Positions 12,233 to 62,329 of a stretch of DNA of 64,000 bases are shown in pieces. Each line of letters begins with the position of its first letter. Within the stretch, counting starts at the first letter, position 1. This DNA is from Leucoraja erinacea. Its lineage: Eukaryota. Below the pieces are notes generated by a model, which saw only the letters and a list, made by a program, of their open reading frames with translations, was not told the DNA's origin and did not search any database. The stretch lies in contig NC_073393.1 of NCBI RefSeq assembly GCF_028641065.1, forward strand, positions 16,492,001-16,556,000, read 5' to 3'. Made by a program: the position numbers and the translations under genes.

Positions 12233-15200
12233 ACTCCATCCAAGGACCCCAACAGTCTTTTCAGGTGAGGCAGAGGTTCACTTGCACCTCCTGCAACCTC
12301 ATCTACTGTATGCGCTGTTCCATGCGTCAACTCGTGCATATCAGCGGGACCAAGCACTGGCTCGGTAATTGTTTCGCTGAACTCCTCCACTCAGTCTGCC
12401 TTAACCAACCTGATCTCCTGGTTGCTCAGCACTTGATCTCCCTGTTGCTCAGCACTTTAACTCCCCCATCCATTCCCAATCTGATCTTTCTGTCCTGGGC
12501 CTCCTCCATTGTCAGAGTGAGGCCCAGCACAAATTGGAGGAACTGCACCTCGTAGTTCGCTTGGGTAGTTTACACCCCAGCGGTTTGAACATTAATTTCT
12601 ATGACTTCAAATAGCCCTTGCTCTCCCTCTATCTCCATCCCCTTTCCCTTCCCAGTTCTCTCACCAGCCTCACTGACTCCGACTACATTCTATCTCTGAA
12701 GAAATGTTTCGACGCAAAACATCACTCATTCCTTCTCTCCAGAGATGCTGCCTGCCCCGCTGAGTTACTCCAGCATTCTATATCTACATTCTATCTTTGT
12801 GCCGCCCACTCCCCTGACATCAGTCTGAAGAAGGGTCTCGACCTGAAATGTCACCTATTTCTTCTCTCCAGAGATTCTGCCTGTCCTGCTATTCCAGTCT
12901 GCCTATTTGTCACGTTTAAACCAACATCTGCAGTTCTTTCCTACAGTAATGGTTTAAGAAGAACGGAATACAAAATCAAAACTTTGATGCTATTCTTAAA
13001 AACATCTGTAGAATTAAGCATTACTGGGCACCACACACTTCAGTTCATTTCAGTGGTGCAGTTTTCTTGAAACTAGAGTCTGGGGTTGTTCTTACTGAGC
13101 AGGGGCAGTTGTGCGGATGTTTTTCAGAAGGTTTTGTTTTTGAGAGGAAATGAATATAGCAACAGGGATGTTGATAACCAGAGATTATGTGTAGTGTAAG
13201 ATAACTGGCGAAAGCGGCTGGGTGAGGGAGAAGGGATTCCAGCGTGTTTTATTTGATTTTTAAATGGAATTGTTTATTTTAAACCCATATTGTACACCAC
13301 CTTACTCCTTCCAGCATCGTCTCTAGATTCTCTAAAGAGTCAAACGCCTTTGTCCTTGGATGAAGAGATGGAAAACATTAATCCTGTGGAATCTCATATG
13401 TCATCAAAGTTTAGAAACCTTGAGCATGAAGTCAAGCCAGACACTCCCATGGTTCCCTCGGTGCAATCACGGCTTCGAAGACTAGCTGAACAGAAGAAAG
13501 AATTGTGTTCTGATGGTATGTGTTGTGCCTTACTTTGAAACAGGATATCTTTGTAAGTTAGGAAGCTAGCTATATCATGTTTATAAATATCATTGTATAA
13601 GCAACAGTGGCACAGCTATTGTAAGAAGATGATTGTAATGACATACACCATCTATTTAGATCTTCTCTCCAATGCACGGTTACCTTCAGACACAAAATAT
13701 GGAATGGCTTCTCCAGCAGAAATGATCAACGCCTGGAAGAATGATCTCATCAGACCAGCTATTAAGAAGGTAATTCAATTGGTCCTTGAATCGTGGCGAT
13801 CTACTGAAAATAACTGTTGTTTTTGGAATACGAGGCTGTCAAGAAGTCTGGTAGAAACATTTGAAATCATGAAAGGAATAAGCAGTTGAACTGTTCTCAT
13901 CAACATAGGTGTTAAGAGCTTGGAGATACAAAGTGGATGTTCCTGCGCTGTTCTATGTGATTGGTGATAGAATCAAAATGACAGTGATTAGCGTGTGGAA
14001 TACAATGCCAGGATTATTTGTGGAGGCCGCTTCAATTGTTTAAAAGAGAAAGCTGTATAAATATCAGAATGTAAAGAATTTAAAGCTGCAGTGTAACTGC
14101 TGGCAGAAACTGAATGGGCCATAATACTGTAACCATGTATTTCTATCAATCAATTGCCCTTGTCAATAACCTAAATGATAATACCATGCCCTTAATTTGG
14201 TTTTCGTCACAAGATATTCTTCTGTCACCCGCACTGGCTGCATCATGGATATTCTTGCCATATTACCTTGCTACTCTTCTCCCTTCTCTGACCATCATGT
14301 CTTGCTACAATCTGGCCATGACATTTTTAAATTGTCTTCTATTTCCGAATTCATCCCAACCCTCCAATTTCCATCTCCAAACTAGCCCTTGCTAATCTGC
14401 ATTCTCCAGTTCTGGTCACTTGACTGTCCTTCTGTTTATTTTAACTGAATCCATCATTAGCAACTGTCTTCAGCTGCAAATGCCTGAAATTCTGGGATCT
14501 CTTCAACCTTCTACCCTACTGCACCAAACAATCATTTTAAACAGTTTAATATCTCTGCCTCTTAAATTATCTTTTCAAGCTTTTAGTGACCTGTTTTGTG
14601 TAGTACCCAGATTTTAAGATTCTTTCAGGTACCCGAGGACGAATTGTTACAATAAAAGCACTAACAATACAAATGGTGCAATCTGCAGTTTGTACATTAG
14701 CAACAAAGCAAATTAATCCCTTGCATATGAACCTTGAGGAATTAAAACTATTTATTGGGATCGGGCAAGTCCCCCAGGCTTGTACACCTGGGATTGCTTT
14801 GTGATGCTTCTCGAGGAATGTTGTTGTACTTCTTACAAATCAATTAACTTTTGAGCTACATACCCGTTAGCATCCCTATTTGTTGCAAAATTCCAAATGA
14901 ACCACATTAAATATTTAGATTTTAACACTCTTTTGTGGAAACAGGCCAGAAAAGAGACTACAGATCAAACCGTCATGCCTTCTATGGATGTGAAAACTTC
15001 ATTAATCTCAAGTAAGTGTGCTCTGCTTGACTTATTGTCTTACTATTATGATATTTTGTAAACATATAGATTGATTACTGGTTTGCATAACCTCTAGTCG
15101 TTCTATAAATATGACCCTGAATTGTGGTTGTACAATTTAATATTACCCCCACTCTGCTGTGCCTGTCTTCAGCCTCTAATACTAATCCATCAATTCCTTA

Positions 15201-18200
15201 ATGGAAGTGCCCTTCATTTTATGATATGGCCCAATACTAAATTCATAATCCAGAAGGTTGTGCTTTAAAAAAAAAAAAAGTTTTATTTATTCATTATTTA
15301 TTTTATGTTACTTGATTGTAAGGAAAATCAATTTTGTTGTCTCTTATGAGATAATAACAATAAATTGAATACAATCCAATCCAATGAATTCAGGTGAGCG
15401 TCCATTCAAGCCTTATCTTGTCTTTCTAGCATTTCTTTTCTCTATTGGATTTTATTTCCAAGCCAAATATTATTTCAATAGATGTGGCCTCTAATTACTT
15501 AGCCTTTGCCATTCTTAGCTAGCTGGTGCATACCACCTGCCACTTTAGTTATTCAATCTTTTCTTGCTGTTCACTATCACTGTCATTCTTTAGGATTTCC
15601 CACACCCTGGCCTCCCCTGTTTCTCTACAACTTTAAAAGCTCCTTATTATTCGTGAATCGCCAATCTTTCCCAGCTCTGAAATGTTGCTAACTTGAACAA
15701 TTAGTTTTGTGTTCAAGGATAATGCCAGATCTCTGTTTCAACCAGTTATTTTTATATTGGACATCAGGCGCACTGTCACATCCTCGTGGAGAATGGGGAG
15801 TCTGGTTTCTGGCTCAAGTTGGAGACAGAAGACCAATTTGTAGCTGTATAGTCCTTGCTATATGGTGATACAGTGCATTCAGAAAGTATTCAGACCCCTT
15901 CACTTTTTCCACATTTTGTTACGTTACATTACAGCCTTATTCTAAAATGGATTAAACTTTTTTTAATCATCAATCTATGGACAATACCCCATAATAAAAA
16001 AAGTGAAAACCGGTGTCTAGAAATTTTTGCAAAGTAATTGAAAAGAAATAACAAATATCACATTTATGTAAGTATTCAGACACTTTACTAAGTACTTTGT
16101 TGAAGGACCTTTGGCAGCGATTACAGCCTCAAGTCATCTTGAGTATGACACTACAAGCTTGGCACACCTGTATTTGGGTAATTTCTGTCATTCTTCTCTG
16201 CAAATTCCCTCAAGCTCTGTCAGGTTGGATGGGGAGCATCGATGCACAGCTATTTTCAGGTCCCTCCAGAGATGTTCGATCGGGTTCAAGTCCGGGCTCT
16301 GGCTGGGCCACTCAAAAGACATTTCCAGACTTGTCACTTAGCCACTACTGCGTTGTCTTGGCTGTGTGCTTAGGGTCGTTATCCTGTTGGCAGGTGAACC
16401 TCCGCCCCAGTCTGAGGTCCAGAACGCTCTGGAGCAGGTTTTCATCAAGGATCTCTCTGTACTTTGCTCCGTTCATCTTTCCCTCTATCCTGACTAGTCT
16501 CCCAGTTCCTGCCGCTGAAAAACATCCCCAGGGCATGATGCTGCCACCACCATGCTTCACCGTAGGTATGGTATTGGCCAGGTTTACAGGTGCCTGGTTT
16601 ACAGCCATGATCATATTGAATGGCAGTGCAGGCTCGAAGGGCTGAATGGCCTACTCCTGCTTCTCTATGTTAGACCAAAGAGTTCAATCGTGGTTTCATC
16701 AGACCAGAGAATCTTGTTTCTCATGTTCTGAGAGTCCTTTAAGTGCCTTTTGGCAAACTCCAAGCGGGCTGTCATGTGCCTCTTACTGAGGAGTGGCTTC
16801 CGTCCGGCCGCTCTACCATAAAGGCTGGATTGGTGGAGTGCTACAGACAATATCTATGTCCTCGTCTGCTTTACTCTCTGTAAAAGTGTACAGAGATATG
16901 AAGTCCTGGCCAAAATGTATCCCCTGACCAATCTTAAGAAACTAGCTATTGATCTTGCTTTGGGCATGATATTGCATGTATATACATCTATAATGTGATT
17001 TTGTTAAATAAGTAAGTTTATTGGCCAAGTATTCACATACAAGGAATTTGCCTTGGTGCTCCACCCACAACTAACAACGTGTCATACAGTGACAGTTACA
17101 AATGGCTCAGAAAACACTAAACATTAATAATAATAAAACATTAATTGTTGTTGCTCTACTCAACAGCCAAAAATCTGTAGCCTGCCTTTGATCTGGTATT
17201 TTGTTGGTTCACATGCTTGATCAATGGTGTTTTATCAATTCAATTCAATTCAACTTTAATGTCATCACACAAATACAAGTATGAGTACAACGAGATGCAA
17301 AACTGCATTTTGTTGTACTCGTACTTGTATTTGTGCGATGACATTAAAGTTGAATTGAATTGAATTGATAAAACACCATTGATCAAGCATGTGAACCAAC
17401 AAAATACCAGATCAAAGGCAGGCTACAGATTTTTGGCTGTTGAGTAGAGCAACTACTCGTGGATGAAAGCTATTTTTATGTCTGGCTGTGGCAGCTTTGA
17501 CAGTCCGGAGTCGCCTTCCAGAGTCGAGTTCCAGAGGGAAGTGATTCAAAGAGTTTGTGGCCAGGGTGAGAGGGGTCAGAGATGATTTTGCCCGCTTGCT
17601 TCCTGGCCCTTGCAGTGTACCATCAATGGAGGGAAGGTTGCAGCCAATAATCTTCTCTGCTGATCGGACGATTCGCTGCAGCCTCCATGTGTCGTGCTTG
17701 GAGACTGAGCCAAACCAGACCATGATGAAGAAAGTGAGAACAGACTCTACGATGGCCGTGTACAATTCGACCATCGTTGTCTGTGGCAGATTGTGCTTCC
17801 TCAGCTGCCGCAGGAAGTACATCCTCTGTTGTGCCTTTTTGACTGTGGAGTCGATGGTAACCCCCCACTTAAGGTCCTTGGAGATTATGGTTCCCAGGAA
17901 CTTAAATGCTAAGGCAATGGAGGCAATGTAAAAATATTAGCTAAGCATTTTATAGTTCTGGATTGGATACATAACTTTTAGGAGTAGCAGATGGAGATCA
18001 TTTACCGGCAGTGTAGCTTGTTCTGGCTAGTTATCATTTTTTGTATACAACCCAATGAAGTTAAGCTATGAAATTAAAAAAAATACTTCCAGATCATGTG
18101 AATAAAGACCACTTTTTAATCAATTATAATCTATTCTTTCTTTATTGAAATACAGGTAGCATTGTTGTGCAAGCAGTTCGAGACAAATTTGAAGAGATGA

Positions 18201-24200: not shown

Positions 24201-27200
24201 TCAGCGATGACAACACCTCTGCATAGTGTCTGCCTTGCTTAACTGCACCGCCACAATCAAGCTACAAACTGAAATTTTAGCTCTGCTTCATAGAAAATAG
24301 GTGCTGGAGTAGGCCATTTGGCCCTTTGAGCCAGCATCGCCATTCAATATGAACTTGGCTGATCATCCAAAATCAGTTCCCCGTTCTGGCTTTTTCCCCC
24401 ATATCCCTCGATTCCTTTAGCCCTAAGAGCTAAATCTAACTCTCTCTTGAAAACATCCAGTAAATTGGCCTCCACTGCCTTTGTGGCAGAGAATTCCACA
24501 GATTCACAACTCTCTGGGTCATATGCTCTTGTGTTACTAATTCTGATTTTTCTTTTTAATTGAATTTTGAAAGTGACGAGAGCTTGTTTTTAACTACAGG
24601 ACCCACCATTTGATGTGTTGGCTTTACAGTCAATTACATTTTTGTTTCTTCCATATTTTTGAATTAAACATAATGGGAATAAATGTTAACACTCTGTTTC
24701 TTCCCGACTCACTGTCCCTATCTATCACTGAAGTATTTAGATGCACATCTGAATAAAAATGCACATTATAATTAACTTTATACCTCCGATTTAACTGCAA
24801 TTTTGCTTTCCTCCCGTAACATGTAACCCTTGCAAAATGTGTTCATCCCAAACTAGGTGACGGCAAGGGAAAAGAACCCATGGATTGGTCTACTCCCCTA
24901 AAGAAGGTCACCTTTGCATTAGAGCCACAAACTATTCCATCGTCAGAATATATAGAAACTGACAGTGATGAAAAGTGCATCTCTGAGATCGGTATGAGAA
25001 CATTGTTGTGGCCACTTGAAATTATCAGATGCAATTTATTTCTGTATATAGTTGCAGTTTGAGGAATGAAGATGCCTCTACAAGTAGAAATATTCCTCTT
25101 TTTGATGCTCTTTTATAAATGGGATATAGAGTCATACAGCATTGAAACATGCCCGTTGGAACAACTCGTCCTTGACGACCAAGATGCTCCATCCAAGCTA
25201 GTCCAATTTGTTAGCATTTGGTCCATATCACTCTAAATGTTTCCTATCCATAAGTGTCCTTTCAATTATGTTATAGCACCTGCCTCAATTACAGTACCTT
25301 ATCTGGTCGCTTTTCCATTTACTCATCTCCCTTTGAGTGTAAAAGCTGTCCCTCGGGTTCAATTTAAATCTTTACTCTCAACTTAAACCTGTGTCCTCTG
25401 GTTCATTATTCCTCTACTCTGGGTAAAGGACTCGGCTTTCACCCTATCTATTCCCTTCATGATTTTATACACTTCAATAAGATCACCCCTCAGTCTCCTG
25501 CACTCCAAGGAATAAAGTCCTAGCCTGCGCAACCCATCCCTGTAGCTTGACTACTGGCAATATCCAACTTAATGACATCCTTTCTAAAGTAGAGTGACCA
25601 AACTGAACACAATACTCCAAATGCGGTCTCACGAATGTCTTGTACAACTTTAATATTATATATCCTAATGTCTATGCTCAGTATTCTGACTAATGAAGAC
25701 CAACATACCAAAAACCACCTTTACCACCCATCAACCCGTGACACTACTTTCAAGGAACCATTTACCTGTGCTGTGTAGGAAAGAACTGCAAATGCTGGTT
25801 TAAATCGAAGGTAGACACAATGCTGGAGTAACTCAGCAGGACAGGCAGAATCTCTGGAGAGAAGGAATGGGTGATGTTTCGGGTCAAGACCATTTACCCG
25901 TACTCATAGATTCCTCTGTTCTGCAACACTTTCCAGGGCCCTACCATTCACTGTGAAGGTAGTTTAACTACCCTGGGATTACTTCCAAAAATGCAACACC
26001 TCATTTATATGCATTAAACTCAGAGCTATCCCTCGGCCCACTTGCCCAACTGATCAAAATTCTGCTGTAATTTTTTATGGTTATCTTCATTGTCTACGAT
26101 TTCACCTATTTTAATGACGTCTGCAAACTTGAGGCGCACTACTTGTCACATGCCTCTATCCGACAAACAACCTTCCACCAGCATCCTCTGCTTCCTTCTC
26201 TTCAGCCCATTTTGTATCTAGTTTGCAGCTCTCGCCGGATTCCATGTGATCTAACCTATAGCAGCCTAATAGGTCTTGTTGAAGTCCATAAAGGTGACAT
26301 CTATGACCTTGTCCTTGTCAACCTTCTTGTTACTAATTCAAAAAAACTTGTTATCAAATTATTAATCTACGATCTCCCAAGTAGAAAACCATGCTGACTA
26401 ATCAGCCCCTATCTATCCAAATATGCATATCTTATCCCCAGAATCTTTGCATGTATGCATCGCTTGACTAGTTCGCTTTGCCGCATCATATAGACTTTGC
26501 TGACCTGCAGATTTGTAAAAGATTGTGCTGAAGGATGCTAAAATTGTTCAGCCTTGTTTTAACCCTTTCTGTGAATGGAATTTTGCAGTAATCTAAAAGA
26601 GACATATTTTGTACCAATACATTTGCTTTGCCATGCATCCAAGTAGAGGCTTTATTTCTCTCTCAGAATTGGAATCGTCCTCTCAGGAAGAGCTAAATAA
26701 CTCTGAAATAATTGATGAGCTGTTTAAAGACGTGCTTGACATGGATGATGTAAAGGAAGAAATAGAACATGAAGCTGAGGCTGAAGACCGCATGGTGGTA
26801 GAGTTGGATAAACCTGAAACTGAGGAGCAGAGTGATGAGGCAAAATCTGAAAATGAGGTAAAAGAAAAAAAAGATGAGCTGACTCTTCCCAGAATAGCTG
26901 TGGTGTCTCCACTTGCCAAATCAATCAAATTAGATGCCATGGCTCCTTTGGTAAGTACTCTAAGACCTTCACGTGTCGTACTATTTGTTGTTAGTTTGAC
27001 CGCTTTTTAATTGACTTAAGTGTGGATTGTGAAATGGTCTAACTTGCCTAGATATCTACAAAAATAACTTATTTTCTGCTTTTTGCACTCCCGAGTTCAT
27101 GATTTTTTTTAAATATTGGAAAAACTGCAGGCTGTCTGCTAATCTACAGAGGACTAAGCAGTAACTGTCTCAATTACATTGTGACGGATGAGATCTTTTA

Positions 27201-36500: not shown

Positions 36501-39500
36501 CAAATGTATTGTTTCACTTTAAAGCTGAGAAACGTGTTGCATTACTGACTGAGCTGAGTAGGCTGAAAGGAGACGGTTATGCGGGATCCCGAGGTGAAGC
36601 AGCCCAGTTGACAAATGGGCTTGAGCCCTGCTATGGCGATGTCTGCATCTCTAATCTTCACCTGCCTCTGAAAGCTGAATTTGTGTCTCAAGCATTATGT
36701 AAAGAAGGTAAGGGAGGTATAAAGTGCACAGAGAATCAGATGGAAAAAAGTCATAATTTTTGTTTCATTTTGGTTGTTGATAATATTGTTTTATATCAAA
36801 AGTTATTGTTGCTTAGTTATATAAATACCATGCAACCTTTAAACCAGCTTACTTAGCCTGCTTTACTTGTTTAATACTGTAAAGTAGGTACATTTCTTGA
36901 ACAATGTTTTTACTCCGAAAACCAACTGCATCTTTTCAGTATTTCCAACCTCCAGGTGTTTAAAACAAATTCCACAAACTGAACCCTCTGAAATCTTTTT
37001 CTGTGCTAAATCTCAATTTGCACTGAGTCAGAGTGTAGAACAGTACAGCATAGGAATAGGCCTATGATATCTGTGCAAAACCATGTTGCTAATCTAAACA
37101 ACACACCTGCGTATATATGGACCCTGACCCTTAATGCACTGTCTGAGTAAATGCCTCCTAAATATTTATATTGTATATTCATTCTTTGGTGGATACATGC
37201 TCAATGAGCCAGCAAATTGCCTCTCTTGTATTTGTCAATTAATTACAAGGTCTGAGGATGTAATAAAGATGTGCTGTGCAGGTTGGAGGGCAATAAAAAT
37301 GCTTGCTGTATATTCTGCTCCTAGTGACACCTAGTTGTAACTAAATTACAACTGGTGAATGTGACAGGCATGTACCACATCAACATAACTTCTTCATACA
37401 AACACTCGGGCATCTGGAATATTCTTCAACTAGATGTTTGCCCAAGTTTTGCAGTGCTTCTGGTGAAGGCACAGTGATGTTGGTTGAATTCTAGATTTCT
37501 TTTGACCCAGGAATTATGAACAACGCAATTTTAAAGATTGGTCTGATCATTTGTGTTGAAAGTGCATTTTGAGGGTAGATCAAAGGATGCTTGAATGGCA
37601 ATGATTTAACTTCAAAAATACCTATGTTTGAAAAATCTTGTGTAATGAAACCACCTATATTTATACGTATTTTACATTTCTGCTTCTCTTCTTCAGGAAA
37701 GCCCACGCATTATTTCTTGCTGATGATCAAATATGGTCCACACAATATTATAGCAACTCCACTAGCAACAGCAAAGGATGCTCACCAGAATGATACCATT
37801 ATTTTCCCAACCATCATTACACTGTGAGTTCCCATCTTTAAGGTTGTCTGCAAAAAAAAAATATATGCTTAAGAGATAGTTGGATTGCCACTGACTTAAA
37901 CACTTGTGGCACATCTTAGGTTGGGTAAGGGGGAGGTGCAGCGAGACCTGGGCGTCCTTGTACACCGGTTACTGAAAGTTGGCTTACAGGTACAGCAGGT
38001 AGTGAAGAAAGCTAATGGAATGTTGGCCTTCATAACAAGAGGATTTCAGTATAGGAGTTAAGAGGTTCTTCTGCAGTTGTATATGGCTCTGGTGAGACCA
38101 CATCTGGAGTATTGTGTACAGTTTTGGTCTCCTAATTTGAGGAAGGACATCCTTGTGATTGAGGCAGTGCAGCATAGGTTCACGAGATTGATTCCTGGGA
38201 TGGCGGGACTGTCATATGAGGAAAGATTGAAAATACTAGGCTTGTATTCACTGGAGTTTAGAAGGATGAGGGGAAACCTTATAGAAACATATAAAATTAT
38301 AAAAGGACTGGACAAGATAGATGCAGGAAAAATGTGGGGCGATTCCAGAACCAGGGTCCACAGTCTTAGAATAAAGAGGAGGTCATTTAAGACTGAGGAG
38401 AGAAAAAACGTTTTAACCTAGAGTTGTGAATTTGTAGAATTCCCTGCCACAGAGGGCAATGGAGGCCAAGTCACTGGATGGATTTAAGAGAGTTAGATCT
38501 CTAGGGGCTAGTGGAGTCAAGGGATATGGGGAGAAGGCAGGCACGGGTTATTGATAGGGGACCATCAAGGGGATCAGCCATGATCACAATGAATGGCGGA
38601 GTGATACATGAAGAGCCCTCCAAGAATAAACCTTGCATTGTTTAAATAGGAAGTTTCAGTTAGCTGCCTACTGTCATAAATCTCCCCACAAACTTGTAGA
38701 GGAAAAATTCAAAGCCACATATTCAAAATTCAACTTATTTGACTTCAGTTTTTTGTGCCATAAATTTTGTTGTACCCGTTCCTTGGTTTTAATGCTATTC
38801 CCATAAAAAGATTTAAGATTAACATGTTGATTTGGGGATTAAATCCAGATTCTCATTCATTTTACCATTTGTACAATTTTTTAAAAGTTTGATTTTGGGA
38901 CAAAAGAAAATATTTTCTTAATTCGAAAATTCATTGCATGACACCGTGAATGATTTCTCTGATTATATCTGACCAATTTGCCTCCTAACTGCAGGCATTG
39001 ACACACTAAGCTAAATTATTGATATATTGTCTTTTTAAAATGTGATCTATCTTAATGATCTTCCAGGAGTGATATTCATTACAAGTTTGAAATTGACGTG
39101 GAGGTGTACAGCTTGGTAAGCAAAGTGCATTCAATTATTAAGCTAATTGATGGTGTTTTAAAACTCCCAATTTATTATGCAGCAAATTGATTTACTTTTT
39201 TGTCCCCTGTAGGCTCAGTCTTTAAATGTAACCACTGCTGAAAAGCGAAGATCATCAAGATCCAAGGTGATGTTTCAAAGCAAGTCATCTGATCTGTAAA
39301 CTTTCATTTGGTTTGTCATATTGTGTCCTTGATTCTCTTTCATGATTGGTGTTAGAGATGGCTGCTTATGAGCCCAAAAGATGCATCTTATAATTGAACC
39401 ATTGTCCACTCCTCGGTCATGCTTGAAATTATTAACTGATTTTTCTGTACTTTCACTTTAATCATATAATTTTAAAGGAAAAAACAATCCATCTGGAGTT

Positions 39501-50400: not shown

Positions 50401-53400
50401 CTGGTCATTGTGAATTATCTTTGTGGAAAACTTCTAGTGCTCATTCTTGTGATTGTTCACATAATGTCTGAGCTGCATATTAGTCAGTGGAACTTGTGAG
50501 AACAGATGAGGTCTCTTAAGAGCTATCCAGAGATGGTTCCTCTTTTTAAAACAAAACTTGCAAGGCAAGGTGTAAATGTCAATTAATTTTTGCTTGTGCT
50601 CTCTTTACTATAGATGAAGCTTGATGGAAAAGTCAGGCAACTGCTTGGAGATGAGTTTCAGGAAAAGGTTGCTGCAGTTAACTAATATCAAGATGCTTCT
50701 AATCATTAGATTTTCCTTTGTGTATCACAGCTTTAGTTTGTGACTAGAAAATGTATTTTGGATTGCCTGCTATTTGCAAAAGCAAAATTTGTTCTTTGTT
50801 CTAATATTTAAATTTCATACAGTAGTGGCTGTATATTACACTAAATTGTGATTTTCATTTTGGAGTGTGTGGAAATGGATAACTTGCATATATTCTCTAG
50901 TCCAAACTACAGCTTTGTGCAAAGTAGCAGTAGCTGATCCAGCTGGTTGGAATTTCCTCCATTTCTGCCTTGATTTTGTATGGTTCTATTTTGAATTTTT
51001 TCAAGCATAACAGGGGCATAGTGCAGAAGTTGCCTGGACTGAGCTATGGCTTGCTTCCCTATTTATTGCACTTGCAAAATTCTCATTCTGGTTCCTTACA
51101 GTGTGTTTAACCTTTACTAATTTTATTATTCCATACGTATGTGAGCTTGTTTCTATTCTTGTTAGCTTTCTGTTGTTGGGCTGGAATTAAATATATGACG
51201 GTGTACTGTAAAATTAGTTATCCTGAAGTACTAATGCATTTCCTTTACCTAAATGCAGGTCCCATTCCTATCCCCCCTTGAAGGTGCCGTATATTTGAAA
51301 CTGCAGTGCCATTTTCACTCCACCATTGAGTATTCGGGATTCCTGGTAATTACTGATTTTTAAAGTTTTTTTTTGGTGAATGTATTACAAATAGGATATT
51401 GATGCAACTTGGTTTCTTCCCACTGCTGCTCAGTCTACCAAACATCCATTTAAAGATGTGTGTCAATATAGAACAGCAATGCCTGAAGTATTCTTTTGTG
51501 TACAATGGATTCTCCAATAAATTTGTCTTTTGTTGACCAAGCAGCGCAATAAGAAGTTTCCAAAGCTGTTTTGCCTAGTTCTTGAATATGGAATCATTTT
51601 GTACTGATACTGCCTCTTTTCACAGACTATATTTGAGGATGTGAGTGGGTTTGGTGCATGGCATCGCCGGTGGTTTGTGTTGTCTGGCAACACACTTTCC
51701 TATTGGACTTACCCCAATGAAGAGAAACACACGGTGATTAATAACATACAACTTTTTCACTACAGATTTGTACTCTATCCAAATCAATTGGATGATTTGC
51801 CACTTCAAAATGAAGTAGAATAGTAAAAATCAAGACTAAATGGAAATCTATTTCTCCTTTGCTTAAATTAATAGTAATTAATATTACTATGCAAGTTCAC
51901 AATTTATCTGCACTTTCACTGTTTACAGTGAAAGACTGACTATGATGGAAGACTACTTTCATTATAGACTCCCCTTGATAATCCTGTTTAAACCATATGA
52001 TTCCAAAGGTACTAGCAATATTTTTACTTATTAAATTGAAATTCTTTATATAATCTGGTAGATAGCAGAGCATCTGAACACTGGGCCATCGTGGCTGGGC
52101 TTGATCCTATTTCCCATATCTGTATGCAAGAGCATTGAATAGAAACTCCAGCAGATTTTATTTGCTCTTCAGTCCATGACCTTGAGATTAATTACAGGTT
52201 CTCAGCCTTGACTGGGATCCACAAATTCACCAATATTAATCATTTTAGATTCCACGGTTTATTTTGTATTTTTAAGGATACGATACTGGTCATTGTTGTG
52301 GTTTTGGTGTACCCGGGAAACAATAAATGATTCAAGATTTGGGAAATTCTCTGAATGCTTTGGAATGTAGTGTACATGTACATCTTTTGGGCTTCAGCTC
52401 AAATACCTGCTATTAAAATTTGTGTAGTGTGGTGTAATTAGTTACTTTGAATTGCTGGCCATATCACAACAATTTATACATTTGTATTATGATACGATAT
52501 AACTTTATTTATCCCAGGAAATTAATGCATTGGAAAACTTTATTTTGTCCAGAAACCTATTGGGTGCATTAACTTGGCCAACTGTACCACAGACAAGATT
52601 GAACCTGCCAATCGTGAGTTCTGTTCCAGACCTAAAACCTTGGAGCTGATTACAGCATCGCCTCTGTCTAAAGATGATCATGAAACACTAATTGTACATT
52701 GTCGAGACAATTTCTGCTTTACCAAGTAAGTTGGATTAGCCATTATTATATGCTTAATTTTGAAATGGCTTGTACTCGCTAGAATTTAGAAGATTGAGGG
52801 GGGATCTTATAGAAACGTACAAAACTTAAGGGGTTGGACAGGCTAGATGCAGGAAAATTGTTCCCGATGTTGGGGAAGTCCAGAACAAGGGGTCACAGTT
52901 TAAGGATAAGGGGGAAATCTTTTGGGACTGAGATGAGAAAAACATTTTTCACACAGAGAGTGGTGAGTCTCTGGAATTCTCTGCCACAGAAGGTAGTTGA
53001 GGCCAATTCATTGGCTATATTGAAGAGGAAGTTAGATGTGGCTAAGGGGATCAGGGGATATGGAGAGAAGGCAGGTACAGGATACTGAGTTGGATGATCA
53101 GCCATGATCATATTGAATGGCGGTGCAGGCTCGAAGAGCCGAATGGCCTACTCCTGAACCTAGTTTCAATGGTTCTATGAAACATTTCTCCAAGCCACTG
53201 CTTCTCAAAAAAGATGCCATTAAACTTTCACCTAATTTCATGGTCCTGGTATATGGGAGAAACATGTTGTTTGACTATCGTCGCATCCATTTTCATCTCT
53301 TTATGGCATTAAATGTTGCTGTCTGGTAGTTCATTAGGCTGTTATGTTTTTTTGTAAACTTCAGATTCGTAGTAGAATCGGTGAATGGTAGACCTTATGT

Positions 53401-54779: not shown

Positions 54780-56700
54780 TATTTAAACGTGTGCACTTGT
54801 TCCCTGCTTTGTTCAGGTTCAATTGCCATCTTGCATTCTCTGAAACTGGAACTAATTTCACAGCCTAGCAATAAAATGAACCACACTGCAGGTGCTGGAA
54901 TTATTCAGGTTAATCAGCAAGCTTCTTGGGCCAGTATGTAGTCTTAGATTCAGTTAGGTGTAGGGAAAGGTTGGGGAAGATGGATTAAATAAAGCTAAAC
55001 ATGCAAGACAAGGTGGATAACATAAATTAAAATATGGGTTAAGAACAAGTGTGAAGTGGGATTTTCTGCTTGTCTTGCTGTAAAGGCTTGGTTGGAAGAT
55101 GAGCATTGACACCAAAATCAGACTCCCTGTTCAAAGCCCAGTTCTAGTTGAGGACCAAATATGCAGTCACCCCATAAGCATTTAGCTTCAGTGTTGTAGT
55201 GCAGACTTATATAAGTAGTTAATGCAGAATGCTAAATATATTTACTTTGTTGCAGCTGGTAACCATTAGGAGAGGTAAAAGGGTATGTGTAATACTTCTC
55301 TCACTTACTTGGGAGGAAGTTGGGGTTGATTTGCATACACCAGGGCATTGAAACAATCTATAACGTGCCACGTGGGAAAAGTTGATAAACCTACTTGATG
55401 TTGATGGCAGCATAGTAAATGGGGCTTCCGAAGGGCTTTAGAACCATGGTTTTATCTCAAACCAGTAATCATTTACCCAAAGCCAGTTTATCTAGTTCAA
55501 AACAAATCTCAGCTTGTCCCCTACCATGACCAGCAGCTGTAGTACTGGTAGTACATTATTATTATTAAGAAAAACATTATTTGAGGGATTGCCAAATATG
55601 GTTTCATATTGTGGAAAATCAAAATATGGACAGTTTTTCAGGCACACTATGCCCTCTGACTCGGGATTCATCTATACTCACTAGGCCAGTAAGTATAGCT
55701 TTAATTTTTGGCTCTCAATTTAGAAATATTTAAGCCCACATAAGCATCTGCAGTAACTGCAGATGCTAATCAGCTTTTAACCTAAGTGTTATTGAGTTAT
55801 GCCATTTATAAGTGGTCATGTATGATTTGTGAATTCTGTATGGGTGTTTCCACCATAACATGGGTTGCCCACACTTTATGCAAGCTCTAAGTGAACTGCA
55901 TCTAAATGTAATGTTCCTCTATGCCCCAGCATCACAGCATTGTTCGAAGAACAAGACCAAAAAAACAAAATTGCCAGAAGGCCTTTATTTCAAGAATTTC
56001 CACATCAGACACATTCCAGAACGGCCTCAGTTCTTCACGTGGGCTTTCTTCTTGATCAGCTACAAAATGCCAGCCATCAGCATACCATCAAAGATGAATG
56101 GGTCCATCCTGTGTGTGTCTCCTCTGGGATGAGACTTTCAATCCAATTACACTGACTGGTGTTTATGGAAATTATCTGATGCATGTTACATCTGAGAACA
56201 GTGTGTGGTAGTCTTGTTTACAAATGGCCGGTTCTGCATTCCATTGCATCTGAAACAAATCGCCATGAGTGAAGTAACCTGTCAAAAACATTGTCCAACC
56301 CCTCCCCTCCCCCAATTATAGCTGTTTATCACCTATCAAAAACTCCAATTTCCCCAACCGATCAATACAAATCTGTGGGTAATTGAAAACCCTAAAAAAA
56401 ATTATATTCACTAGTTCATCTGTGTCATGAAGTAAAGACTCCAGAATAACACAAGAGCAACATAAACTAATTTGCATTGATGCTATTGTTGATGATAAAT
56501 GGACAATGATCAATCAGCACTATAGTGGAATGCTTAACTCTAGATAACTTGTTTTCAACAATGGGCATTGAACATTCCAAGACCATTATGCACATGATCA
56601 CATAAACTAAGAAAATTGAGTACTGCACTTATTGCCTCAGCGTTGTAAGCATCTTTGCCGTCTCTGCAAGAGGCAGCTACAGTCAGTAAAATAAAGATCA

Positions 56701-56778
56701 AGTTCTCAGAGTAATTACTTTAACACTCCTCACTGACTGTTCAGATAATACATGCCAAACATTACTCATCATTGAACT
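56701..56778 (-). ncRNA. SNORD45: Box C/D snoRNA of the SNORD45 (U45) family
   Basis: Minus strand AGTTC-A-ATGATGA-gtaatgt-TTGGCATGTATTA-t-CTGA-acagtca-GTGAGGA-...-AATTACT-CTGA-GAACT. It has a 5-bp terminal stem and C, D', C', D boxes. The D' guide is complementary to the conserved 18S rRNA segment UAAUACAUGCC, and the +5 rule lands on the U equivalent to human Um172. Confidence 0.88.
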
Positions 56779-59700
56779 TGGGCACAGGGGAAAAAATAAA
56801 TAAAATACAGGGCTTAATGTCAAAATAACCTTTAAACAGAATGCAAAAAAAAAAGTTTATACGTGTAATATATACAGTATTATAACAATCATAAAATTAC
56901 TTCAAACAAATTGATCAATACATTGTTTATTAATAGAACCCAAGATTATAACATGCATACCAAACAAATCCTGTTTATATCGTATTGAACCTCATTATCC
57001 TTGCATATCACGCTGTTTTGACATCAATGGTTTCCAGTATCACCCATCGATTATTCATTTCACATGTATTTCCAACATCTTCATAGGAGATTAGGCAACC
57101 TTTCCTCACAAATGCCTTACCGAGATTGGGACTGCATCCTGTTTCCCAACAAATAGAAAAGGTTAGTGAATCATCTTTAAATACTTGGCCTGAAAAATTA
57201 TTGTTTGTGAAGCAATCCTCGGGTTCTTTCTGCGTGGAGCTTGCGCATAATTCCTGTGTCTGCAAGGGTTTCCTCGCACATCCCAAAGACATGTGGGTTT
57301 TTACGTTAATTGGCCGCTGTAATTGCTCCCAAAGTGGATATATGCTAAAAAATCTGTATATAGATCGGGGGAAAGGAAGTATCTATACAACTGTTCTACA
57401 AACTGTCCATGTTTTTTGAGTCAAAGCTTCAAATCTTCTTATGGTTGTTCAGATTTACTAGCAAATCATTCAAAACTAGATGGAAGAGAACAATTCCACA
57501 ATCACTCTAAAAATTAAGTACACGTTATAAAATCAAAATTAGGCATGAGGATTCTTCTTTAATTTATTTTAAAAAGTCCAATTACTCAGTTGATTTTAAC
57601 TTATTGCTTCTGATCAAGTTCCAAACATACCTTTTCAAATACAACTATCCGTGCACCACATTGTCCAACAGGTCTTCTCTGATGTGTGGCTTTCAGCATT
57701 GTAAACAAAATCATTGCCTTCCATCTCAGCACTCCCTCTAGCCTATTCTTCCATATTTGCCCTCAGCAGACTGAAGAAACACAAGAGAAATAAAAACATG
57801 TGAAAATTAGTTTGATATCTTTAAAGGAGAACATTGATGGTAATGGATGTGTAAAGGAGGTAATTAGCTACATCTAATTGTGGGATTCCCCCCCCCCCCC
57901 CCCCCTTCCTGCAATTTCCACATTAATCAATGTCGACATTTGTCACCGATGCAATAGCTTTTCGCTGAAAATTATTTGTCAGGATAATGGGCCATCTGGC
58001 AGTGTAGGTGCTCGCCAAGAATCCTAGATACTCCACACAGCCGGCGACAACACATTTCCCCCCAAAATGGTGCCATTCTGTGAGGACATTATGCAAGCAG
58101 CACAACAGCAAAAACCACCTGGAAGGATAATTAGGCATTAATCATATTGATGTCGGGCTGGAATCAAATAAAGACCACACCAACAACGCTGAAAAGCATC
58201 CTCTCCTAAAAGACGCGCATTACATTTATGGCAATTTTGTAACATAGCAATCATCACGTCATGATATTCACTTGCTGAGCGCCATCTTTTATTTCCAGTT
58301 GTCACAAAATTATTTTTTTAACAAATCTACAGGGGTTTGAACTTCCTTTTTTTTCATATTAGTCCAGGTCTCCAGATTACTACGTAATATGCCCATACCC
58401 GTTGTAATTTTGAGTTAATGGGCAAAGAGTTCTTGATTTAAAAAAAATTGATTTCCTTCTGCTGAATTGATTTCCTTGTTCCTCCTGCTCATTGTGCTGA
58501 TAAGATATGGGTAGCACAGTGGTGCAACATTTAACACTGCAGCTCCACATTCAATCCCGACAAGTTACTGTCAGTGTGAAGCTTGCACATTCTCCACCTG
58601 GGATTCCTGTCAATATCATGGTTCCCTCCCATGAGCCAATATATTCTAACAAGTATTTTGAAGGTGTTAATCAATGTAAATCCATAGCTAAATCCTAAAT
58701 ACCATTAATTCTGATGGAGTAATAGCTTTGATGAGTTAGTAGTTTTAAATTATGCAAGAGATGCTAATGTTTGGCTGCATTGCATGTACATGTGATTGCC
58801 TAACCATCTCCTCATTCCCTGGACATCGTGGTTTCATGAATGTTTTCATTAATTCATTTCAAATAAGCACCTCACTGAATATATGTATGCGAGATAACCC
58901 CATCCCGATCAGTCTCTTGGCGAGGTCGATATGGTGCACTGTTCAAGGATACGAGTATTGAATATTAATAAGACGTCTATGGATCAGTCTAGAGTTCGGG
59001 CTGGAAGCGTACTGCTGATAATGCTCACTTCATCAAAACACACAACGCAACTTAATGGGGGAATAAGTAAGTTGATTGGCCAAGTATTCACATACAAGGA
59101 ATTTGCCTTGGTGCTCGGCCCACAAGTAACATGACATAGTGACAGTTACGAATGACTAAGAAAACACTAAACATTAATAATAATAAAACATTAATGATAA
59201 AACACCATTGATCAAGCATGTGAACCAACAAAATACCAGATCATCTGACAAATATGTCAAAGGTAGTTTAGAGCAATGGTGTTATGCAGCATGGAAACAG
59301 GCCCTTTGGCCCACTGCGTGATGTACTATCCTGACTTACTGCATGACATATTCATAACACACAAGATTCCAAATATCACCTCAAACACCAATGCAATGAA
59401 TAACCTTTTGAACTGTTTTGGCAGCATTTGTAGGCATTAATCAAACGGGGGTTACCCTATACTGTTGGAGCAATCATTTTATAGCAGATGGCAAACAGAC
59501 TGCTCTCAGACTGCTGCAAAAGATTAAGGACAATGTTTTGAAGAGCAGAGATTTTCTCCACAGCAACAACAACCAGCATTTACAACAGATAACTTTTTTT
59601 TCCTACTGTCATACAAGGATCTTGCCGTATTTCAGAGGCTGTCACTAAATGCTTTCCACATTAAAGACATAAATGGCTCTACAAAAATGCCAGTGTTCTA

Positions 59701-59799
59701 CAGTTCTCCAACAATTGTAAGAATCATGTGCTTGCAGTACTTCAACATTTACTGCTCATTAGATCATTAGAACATGGATTCAAGGAAACAGAAAGAAAG

Positions 59800-59866
59800 T
59801 CCCAAGCTTTCCACAACTCATCACAGGCTGTTCAGGTAATACATGCCAAACATTACTCATCAGAGC
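59800..59866 (-). ncRNA. Second SNORD45-like copy with no recognisable D box (degenerate or pseudogene)
   Basis: TGATGAGTAATGTTTGGCATGTATTAcCTGAACAG is nearly identical to the 56.7-kb copy, followed by a perfect C' GTGATGA. No CTGA or terminal stem at the expected 3' position. Confidence 0.65.
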
Positions 59867-59989
59867 CAGGAAAGGAGAAAAAAGACATGGACAAGTAAAA
59901 CACTCCAATGAATTGACAGCCTGAATTGACTGACTCTGCATGTGGGCATAACAGAAAGGAAATGTATCCCAACCCAAACACTTGTATAA

Positions 59990-61060
59990 AGACAGACACA
60001 TAAATGCTGGAGTAACTCAGCAGGACAGGCACCAGAAGGAAAGAAAGGAATGGGTGCCATTTTGGGTCGAGACCCTTCTTCAGACTGATGTCAGGGGAGT
60101 GGGCGGCACAGAGATAAAATCTAGTTGGAGACAGTGAGACTGGTGGAAGAACTGGGAAGGGGAGGGGATGGAGAGAAAGAGAAAACAAGGGCTACTTGAA
60201 GTTAGATAAGTCAATGTTCATACCGTTGGGGTGTAAGCTACCCAAGCGAAATATGAGGCGCTGTTCCTCCAATTTGCACTGGGCTGCACTCTCTGACAAT
60301 GGAGGCGGCCCAGGACAGAAAGGTCAGATTGTGAATAAAAGGGGCAGTTAAAGTGCTGAGCAACCAGGAGATTAGGTTAGTTAAGACAGACTAAGCAGAG
60401 GTGTTCAGCAAAACGCAGAGCCTGTGCTTGGTCTCGCCGATATACAGGAGTTAACACCAGGAACAACGGATACAGTAGATGCGGTTGGAGGAAGTGCAAG
60501 TGAACCTCTGCCTCACCTGAAAAGATTTGGGATCCTTGGGTGGAGTCAAGGAGGGAGGTAAAGGGACAGGTGTTGCATCTCCTGCGGTTGCTGGGGAAAG
60601 TACCTGGGGAGGAGGTGGTTTGGGTGGGATGGGACGAGTTGACCACAGAGTTGTGGTGGGAACGGTCTCTGCAGAACGCCAAAATGGGTGGAGACGGGAA
60701 GGTGTGGCAAGTAGTGGGATCCGTTGGAGGTGGCGAAAACGTTGGAGGATTATATGTTGTATGTGACAGCGATAGGGTGGAAGGTGTGGAGGAGGGGGGG
60801 GGGGGGGGGGGACTCTGTCCTTGTTACGAATATGGGGAGGGGAAGCAAGAGCGGAGACCGTAGTGAGAGCCTCGTTTAAAATGGAAGAGGGAGACCCCCA
60901 TTCACTAAAGAATGAGGACATCTCCAATGACCTGTCATGGAAAACTTCATCCTGAGCACAGATGCTGCATAGACAGAGGAATTGGGAGTAGGGGATTGAG
61001 TATTTACAGGAAGCAGGGTGGGAAGAAGTGTTGTCTAGATAACAATGGAAATCAGTGGGT
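59990..61060 (-). mobile_element. Penelope-like retroelement remnant (RT thumb + GIY-YIG)
   Basis: [42 protein letters not shown]; same terminus as the 12.8-kb copy. Confidence 0.88.
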
Positions 61061-61399
61061 AAGTCTTTGAGATGTTGGAGCAGCCTGGGAAACCCACGTG
61101 CTCGCAGGGAAAATGCAAACCGCGCAGAGCTCAGGATCGAACTGGGGTCGCTGGAGCGCTCCATCTGTTGCACCTCCTGTAATTCAGACTTTGTATCTCA
61201 GTATGAATGACCACGCCGAGCTTTGGCGACACTAAATCAGGTTTACCAATGGAGTTGCCAGGCAACAGCTTTACTAGTTGTGTTAATTTAAATCCTAAGA
61301 ACATTCAGAATCAATTTACTTACCGTAAAATTGGATTGAAAGTACCAAATAGACGTGGGATTGAATACGAATAAACCTGGGATTGTAGCGCGTTATCTG

Positions 61400-61790
61400 A
61401 CCCGCGGCCGGAGGGCCCAACACGTGGCCTCCTGATACCCCGAGCTTGGAGCGGGAGCGCACACGCACCTGGCCCGCCGCCTCACGGAGGGAAAGTGCCT
61501 GACTGGCGATCAGGGGCCGCCCTGTTACCCCGAGTACGGAGCGGACCTCACTCACCTGCTGCCGCCTCATGGAGACGGAGGGAAAGATGGAGTACCCTCC
61601 GCTTGCCCCTCCTCCCAGCCATCTCCATGGTAACTACGCAGTGCGCGTTGACGAACCTCCCGGGGGGGGGGGGCGGGTACCTGCCGCGGAAGAGCCAATC
61701 GGGACCGTGAATTCCGCCTGATTGACATCTGACCGTCCAGAGAAATGATCTTTGGTCCAGAGCGCCTGTTCGGTTCCGCGACAGGCAATG
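61400..61790. promoter_or_regulatory. CpG-island promoter of the minus-strand host gene
   Basis: High CpG density; GCGGAAG (ETS-like) ~61686, CCAAT ~61695, X-box-like ATCTCCATGGTAAC 61621-61634. Confidence 0.65.
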
Positions 61791-62329
61791 CAGTTTCTTG
61801 CAAACAGGTGGGTGCCTGGAGATTGCTTCACATCGTCATTCCAGGTTTATATTGCAGCTGAAAGAAGTTGTGCTCTCCAATCTCCTACTTTGAGATTGGT
61901 AATAGCAAGATTAATTCATCACCTCTTGATGTATTTTGGCATCAGCTGCACCGCTAATATAAACTTGTTGTCAACATCTTTCTGAGCAAATCAGTCCAAA
62001 TAGCACCATAGCTCATTATTTTAGTGTGTCACAGTCGCTTTTCCTTTGACTTATGTATTATTGTTCTGATGCAGTGTCGCGCAGGGCAAGACCCAACATA
62101 TCAGCTGGCTTTCCCCTTTTGATGAAAGGCCCTTGACTGAAACGGCAATTGTTTATCTCCCCAGAGATGCGGCTTGACCCGATCAATGACTAGCGTTTTC
62201 TATGATGAGAGGACAGGTTAATGTGCTGAAACTTAGACAATATCTCAGTGCGCTGAATAATAATGGGGGCTTTTTAAAATTGCAGCTGGGATTGTAGCTC
62301 ATAGTGGTGGGAAATGTTCCATCAATCCT

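Follow-up and report, generated by a model that had tools for sequence, protein, structure and literature searches.

In human, the box C/D small nucleolar RNAs (snoRNAs) of the U45 family (SNORD45) lie in introns of the protein-coding gene RABGGTB, as described in PMC8393311; in chicken they occupy RABGGTB introns 1 and 2, with a 13-nt guide directed to U172 and a 17-nt guide directed to A159 of 18S ribosomal RNA (rRNA), according to PMC2653536. In zebrafish, U172 is reported to be guided from si:dkey-239h2.3 and A159 to be unmethylated (PMC7668251), and a predicted match to RF00279, the Rfam model of SNORD45, is placed on chr4, with no host named in the rows examined of the supplement of PMC11880993. 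In Xenopus, U45 is not expressed and neither modification is present, according to the supplement of PMC6984369. A 2026 survey reports that exact retention of snoRNA hosts is uncommon across vertebrates, and its main text makes no mention of SNORD45, RABGGTB, shark or skate (PMC13736004). A literature search, judged from listings, turned up no report of a cartilaginous-fish U45 host. Here, a 64,000-nt stretch of the genome of the skate Leucoraja erinacea was analysed (contig NC_073393.1, forward-strand positions 16,492,001–16,556,000; hereafter the window, whose numbering is used unless otherwise indicated). An earlier sequence-only reading had proposed that the minus strand of this window bears a non-coding gene hosting SNORD45 snoRNAs away from RABGGTB.

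The locus is best explained as a gene with four spliced exons that probably encodes no protein and probably serves to release, from its last intron, a U45-type box C/D snoRNA predicted to guide the 2′-O-methylation of the U172 equivalent of 18S rRNA; we assign this reading a probability of about 80%. The gene is likely a real host that works like the GAS5-type hosts, and its RNA likely works like U45.

Transcript and intronic snoRNAs

RNA data from four runs (X1, composed of contigs, and X21, X23 and X24) were mapped over positions 55400–62200; 15 joints were shown and 81 further ones were not. The spliced minus-strand transcript expected from the sequence-only reading was recovered, with four exons connected by GT-AG joints, all of them spanned by a single 650-nt X1 contig. 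The joint from 61324 to 57770 was seen in 72 reads of X23, 11 of X24 and 0 of X21, that from 57631 to 57138 in 51, 71 and 0 reads, respectively, and that from 56991 to 56249 in 36, 59 and 3, each being present in the X1 contig as well. Exon 1 is mostly used in a long form (61324–61588, minus strand like all exons below; donor GTAAGT), which was supported by joint reads, the X1 contig and a spliced contig from a second organism (organism B). The latter shows the same exon 1–2 junction with ∼6% differences, so the gene is common to more than one species. Exon 2 (57631–57770, 140 nt) is delimited by joints on both sides, and exon 3 (56991–57138, 148 nt) is skipped in part of the transcripts, the joint from 57631 to 56249 appearing in 55 reads of X23 and in 0 of X24 and X21. 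Exon 4 (55965–56249) is the last one; the X1 contig aligns from 55973, and the 3′-end lies near 55970. The poly(A) signal noticed earlier, AATAAA at 55989–55984 (−), agrees with this end, since read coverage stops just past it and the minus-strand single-cell reads pile up beyond it (depth 74 in the bin 55854–56080 versus 0.08 in the next bin). The long-form spliced transcript amounts to 838 nt. Signal from intron 1 outside the exons corresponds mostly to repeats.

These exons replace the tiny internal ones that had been proposed. In place of an 18-nt internal exon, the reads run from 57138 to the donor at 56991, with no joint at 57121 among the 15 shown. A further exon predicted at 56663–56628 likewise had no joint among those 15, and the mean depth over 56535–56761 was at most 1.1, as compared with ∼30–50 per strand on exon 4 (X23 and X24). 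The genome itself bears on the exon 3 boundary. While exons 1, 2 and 4 have no other copies, the exon 3 region (56984–57141) has three dispersed ones, 99%, 95% and 96% identical (L065:1501–1662, L066:1501–1631 and L067:1501–1575). Two of these continue into exon 4 (11/11 and 13/14 letters), the third being ambiguous; the two were therefore copied from spliced RNA, and they provide independent support for the junction from within the genome. All three copies terminate 7–14 nt beyond the exon 3/4 junction; one seems to lie inside a short interspersed element and another at the seam of a 252-nt duplication. Their common end point may reflect a defined cut end of the RNA, or a priming site for retrotransposon enzymes.

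An intact SNORD45-like box C/D snoRNA was found at 56699–56780 (−). The joints place intron 3 at 56250–56990 (−), and the snoRNA therefore lies inside this intron, 448 nt from the acceptor. From 5′ to 3′, it comprises a stem strand (56780–56774), a canonical C box (ATGATGA, 56772–56766), the guide (56758–56746), a D′ box (CTGA, 56744–56741), a C′ box deviating at one position (GTGAGGA, 56733–56727), a D box (CTGA, 56709–56706) and the second stem strand (56705–56699), the terminal stem being of 7 bp. The RF00279 scan that the sequence-only reading had suggested, run with relaxed-threshold Rfam over 7.5 kb, gave a match at 56700–56777 (−) that covers all 72 model positions (37.1 bits, E 1.3e-4). 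Throughout the genome (2.19 Gb; 69 candidates scored), this copy was the best of nine RF00279 matches (E 0.0092), the next one scoring 29.9 bits (E 0.745). The other eight (25.8–29.9 bits) were set aside as noise; three were rescanned, and the sole alignment displayed lacked a proper D box.

The D′ guide forms 13 Watson–Crick pairs with an 18S copy of this same genome (L044). By the fifth-nucleotide rule, its fifth position faces U169 of that copy, which is the U172 equivalent, 13 nt from the A159 equivalent, as in human numbering. The host strand contains two 13-nt Watson–Crick matches to 18S placed directly before N-CTGA, as against none in 470,000 bases of control sequence, which, together with the predicted fold (z = −3.42; 2 of 200 shuffles equally good), argues that the match is not due to chance. 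The exact guide pattern has three matches in the genome: this copy, a decayed copy in intron 1 and a site on C13, which was rejected as a snoRNA since it has no C box. On these sequence comparisons, the intron 3 copy is the only intact carrier of the U172 guide in the genome. The guide agrees with the 18S letters of two of the three ribosomal DNA (rDNA) copies fetched. These copies (L042, L043 and L044, on C1, C8 and C9) are dispersed and altered, L044 being nearly full length as far as fetched; as only three exact 18S matches were found, the assembly may lack the main rDNA array.

The decayed SNORD45-like copy, at 59793–59863 (−) in intron 1, matched RF00279 at 59793–59861 (−) with 21.4 bits in the relaxed-threshold scan. 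It keeps the guide and the D′ and C′ boxes and is 91% identical to the intact copy over 47 nt, but its C box is changed, it bears a deletion and changes at the D box, which is lost, the terminal stem is also gone and the fold z-score is 1.14. It is a decayed duplicate that would have arisen by duplication within the gene into intron 1. Hence, of the several same-strand intronic U45-type snoRNAs that had been proposed, one holds as intact, in a read-supported intron, while the second copy has decayed. No further snoRNA candidate was retained in intron 1: two CpG-rich stretches were not more stably folded than shuffled sequences (z −0.8 and −1.2), and the Rfam leads, ceN70 in antisense and a weak J26, were rejected as chance.

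The skate RNA resembles human and chicken SNORD45 in aligning to all 72 model positions, in its D′ guide to U172 (13 nt, as in the chicken RNA described in PMC2653536), in the order of its boxes, in an AATTAC remnant close to the D box and in having more than one copy per host. In the predicted fold, this D-side remnant of the A159 guide pairs with bases that follow the C box. The skate RNA differs from human and chicken SNORD45 in its low score, the lack of an A159 guide, a host other than RABGGTB and the decay of the second copy. With the zebrafish 'SNORD45' of si:dkey-239h2.3 it shares a guide to U172 only and a host other than rabggtb; in the zebrafish RNA, however, the guide adjoins the D box and the remaining sequence is dissimilar (PMC7668251), whereas the skate RNA follows the amniote arrangement, in which the guide belongs to D′.

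Promoter, 5′-end and mode of action

The CpG-island start recognised in the sequence-only reading extends over 61300–61750 (GC 0.59; CpG observed/expected 0.90). The start region (61571–61588, −) contains a TCT-type motif, with T at 61587, and a pyrimidine tract from C61586. For the 5′-end, reads mapped over 61085–62150 were used (run X22 gave 0 reads there and carries no weight). Eight 5′-ends marked by adapter letters, which we take to be the template-switch oligonucleotide, lie behind 61588 (3 reads in X23 and 5 in X24), and coverage drops above this position. The capped starts seen thus fall on the A of a CA dinucleotide, the first C of the tract being two bases further on, and the start site is where it had been placed (∼61586). 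Exon 2 is joined after 61324 (65 reads in X23, 11 in X24), after 61551 (8 and 10) and after ∼61599 (3). The very short first exon that had been predicted (61556–61588) therefore exists, although as a minor form (18 reads versus 76 for the donor at 61324). Its donor in the window, GTGAGT at 61555, was assigned by consensus; in the reads it lies 5 nt further on (after 61551) because they bear two 1-nt insertions.

Segment 61415–61590 (−) is a ∼90-nt tandem duplication, and the pyrimidine tract recurs in each unit together with a donor-like site. In the second unit (61415–61500, −), identified by sequence comparison, these are at 61495–61486 and GTGCGT, respectively, and no loose end or adapter was listed there in the reads. 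Adapter-bearing loose ends of mixed consensus were also present at 61546–61550 (16 and 5 reads), putting some cDNA 5′-ends at the first base of the intron that follows short exon 1. These cDNA ends could derive from strand invasion, from the G bias of template switching or from a stop at the lariat; a bias of template switching toward G starts is reported in PMC6280763.

The gene had been labelled a 5′-terminal oligopyrimidine (5′TOP) host, a definition taken here in part from PMC6954239. Dual initiation is described there as the norm for snoRNA hosts, with both kinds of start mixed a few bases apart. The skate promoter is similar in that a CA (pyrimidine–purine, YR) start and a TCT (pyrimidine–C, YC) motif lie two bases apart, but unlike those promoters it shows the YR start only, in eight reads. 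The C-initiated tract is present, while all eight marked ends begin at A61588; 5′TOP initiation is thus a candidate only, and the TOP label is unproven.

The proposed course of events is as follows. RNA polymerase II would initiate dually, at A and at C, intron 3 would be spliced out and its lariat freed, and exonucleases would trim it to a ∼75-nt RNA guarded by the C/D proteins. The 7-bp terminal stem may aid this processing, given the 448 nt to the acceptor; a terminal stem can offset the distance from the branch point, according to PMC10234308. The resulting ribonucleoprotein would methylate the U172 equivalent of 18S rRNA, and the spliced exons would be destroyed by nonsense-mediated decay (NMD). 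Like GAS5, SNHG1/UHG and the zebrafish host FP101887 described in PMC7668251, the skate gene starts in a CpG island at a pyrimidine tract, its exons are spliced and polyadenylated and they contain many short open reading frames (ORFs); alternative splicing, a same-strand intronic C/D snoRNA and a predicted sensitivity to NMD are further points in common with these hosts. Unlike them, the skate gene has one intact snoRNA (versus about ten), four exons of ordinary size and capped starts at A rather than C, and it carries U45, which is hosted by a protein-coding gene in chicken and human.

Evidence against, and alternative explanations

Several observations weigh against a functional U45 host. 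The RF00279 score is under the gathering cut-off (37.1 versus 42 bits), so the RNA is filed as SNORD45-like, likely a divergent homologue, outside formal membership of the family; a scan of the whole window at the gathering score gave 0 matches, and scans at this cut-off would overlook the gene. The A159 guide is absent, the best D-side duplex with the 18S copy being of 7 bp. Human U45B is likewise not known to have an A159 guide; in the skate genome, a scan for an intact one gave nine matches versus three in the reversed control, and on inspection none of the nine had a C box with the spacing of a snoRNA. Past the snoRNA, 34 nt downstream, there is a strong acceptor with a consensus branch point (56664–56685, −), both barely used in the poly(A) reads; this acceptor could hinder release of the snoRNA, or it possibly belongs to an unstable exon or to an intermediate of snoRNA release. 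No adapter-marked 5′-end was listed at C61586 (0 versus 8 at A61588), although the reads are few and template switching leans toward G starts (PMC6280763). The RNA data behind the host gene are poly(A)-type reads and contigs, and the mature snoRNA and its methylation are predictions. The reads differ from the window by ∼1% (for the X1 contig, 7 of 644 letters) and carry fixed insertions and deletions, so they may stem from another population or species closely related to that of the window; the first-exon usage described would apply to the window's own animal by extension. Finally, RABGGTB lies on a short contig, so that a U45 copy may be located in unassembled DNA.

Some of these points would fit an alternative in which both U45-like copies are inactive and the gene produces an ordinary long non-coding RNA, while U172 either carries no methyl group, which is the case in Xenopus, or is served by an unrelated snoRNA, which is the case in zebrafish. 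The score under the cut-off, the loss of one guide and the decay of one copy agree with it, and so do the lack of both modifications in Xenopus (PMC6984369 supplement) and the estimate in PMC10234308 that expression is limited to about one third of the snoRNAs annotated in vertebrates. Nevertheless, the features that PMC10234308 links to expression are present: the C and D boxes are canonical, the terminal stem is of 7 bp, the 13-bp guide pairs perfectly and the host is expressed. Moreover, the guide fits the 18S letters in two of three rDNA copies; we consider inactivity improbable.

About equally improbable is that the gene encodes a small protein and carries the snoRNA as a passenger. The long form contains 26 ATGs, the first of which, 18 nt from the cap, opens an ORF of 84 codons in the long exon 1 of the window; a second candidate would be an ORF of 33–53 codons starting from exon 2. 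The organism B contig has a 3-nt insertion within the 84-codon ORF that keeps the frame, which would suit a coding role. However, an ORF of this length was reached by 8% of 500 shuffles, and only 7 codons are left of it once the insertions and deletions of the reads are applied. The commonest change, a 1-nt deletion at 61512 (29 of 31 reads in X23 and 6 of 17 in X24), alone reduces it to 58 codons, and two insertions also break it. Skipping of exon 3 (148 nt) shifts the frame. No Pfam family was detected in the exon frames tested, and a Protein Atlas search with an 82-codon part of the ORF gave no usable match, which is weak evidence. The claim that only short ORFs with upstream AUGs are present stands in that no ORF survives the changes in the reads; the window's own long exon 1, nonetheless, holds 84 codons. 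No conserved protein ORF was found across these exons, the comparison of frames covering close relatives only. In each of the three forms examined, the first stop precedes the last junction by 132–280 nt, the distance being 280 nt for the 84-codon ORF. A stop well upstream of the last junction is the usual layout of NMD targets, and the spliced RNA is predicted to be one. The host gene therefore likely makes no protein, as the sequence-only reading had supposed for this spliced host with a same-strand intronic snoRNA.

RABGGTB, U45 hosts and neighbouring genes

A PF00432 profile search of the skate genome found three genes, on C3, C9 and C1251, which from their translations we take to be PGGT1B, FNTB and RABGGTB, respectively. 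On C1251, RABGGTB exon 1 ends at ATG, followed by GT, near 52730, and exons 2–9 are at 65079–83114. Whether its introns still hold U45 had been raised as a check. Relaxed-threshold Rfam detected no SNORD45 over C1251 52000–95000; the U172 guide motif was missing on C1251 1–135000 with two mismatches allowed, the single A159-type match there being antisense; and blastn of both window snoRNA copies against the RABGGTB locus gave nothing at E 0.5. The RABGGTB introns are thus empty of U45 in this genome. No TCT motif was present in the 450 nt before the RABGGTB ATG, and the literature search found no paper on RABGGTB as a TOP mRNA. Conversely, tblastn of seven RABGGTB exon frames over 164 kb around the window (best E 0.17) bore out that no RABGGTB coding sequence is present near the snoRNAs.

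It is very improbable that the gene descends from a RABGGTB duplicate which arose by whole-genome duplication and then decayed, keeping only its snoRNAs: two U45 copies in separate introns recall the arrangement in chicken introns 1 and 2 (PMC2653536), and the short first-exon form would be compatible, but the best blastn hit (E 0.04) was a 50-nt match away from RABGGTB exons, tblastn did no better than E 0.17, and the neighbours are ACD/TPP1, an anillin-like gene and EXOC3L1. With no RABGGTB relic found by blastn or tblastn, retention after genome duplication, one of two origins suggested earlier, finds no support. The other, a lineage-specific host switch, would agree with a U45 host that differs from RABGGTB, but a change in either direction would fit, RABGGTB hosting being documented only for chicken and human.

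The U45 family occupies different hosts in different vertebrates. Tentatively, and with odds clearly below even, the non-coding gene might be the ancestral U45 home of jawed vertebrates, with RABGGTB entered only on the amniote line, where the A159 guide was gained or kept, and with U45 replaced in zebrafish and lost in Xenopus. If so, this locus of rays and skates would preserve the situation that preceded the recruitment of a protein-coding gene as host. Homology with the skate RNA would date the amniote-type U45 layout to at least the split between cartilaginous and bony fishes, and the locus offers a clean case of one snoRNA family whose host is non-coding in one lineage but protein-coding in another. 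The rRNA pattern predicted for rays and skates is Um172 present and Am159 absent. As host retention is already described as uncommon (PMC13736004), the case is a useful data point for the specialist rather than a surprise.

Two plus-strand genes converge on the host gene: ACD/TPP1, with an exon at 14604–14801, and an anillin-like gene at 26597–54000, in which a domain search located Anillin and PH domains at 37579–37824 and 51608–51820. On the other side, exon prediction and homology search identified EXOC3L1 (L034:5363–9043, +), with an exon ∼55 kb beyond the window end that four proteins of rays or skates match at 100% identity and shark proteins at 91–98%, which marks the animal as a batoid. 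A Pfam search of 149 upstream frames found no neighbour gene, and a Protein Atlas search with the EXOC3L1 exon gave weak TPR leads only. We assume that these three neighbours belong to the human 16q22 block and not to a paralogon of 1p31. A teleost gene model (P0068) fuses Sec6, Anillin and PH domains, hinting that EXOC3L1 and the anillin-like gene are old neighbours. A fragment of a Tc1/Tc3-type transposase was also found within the window at 16668–16853 (−; PF01498, E 1.1e-9).

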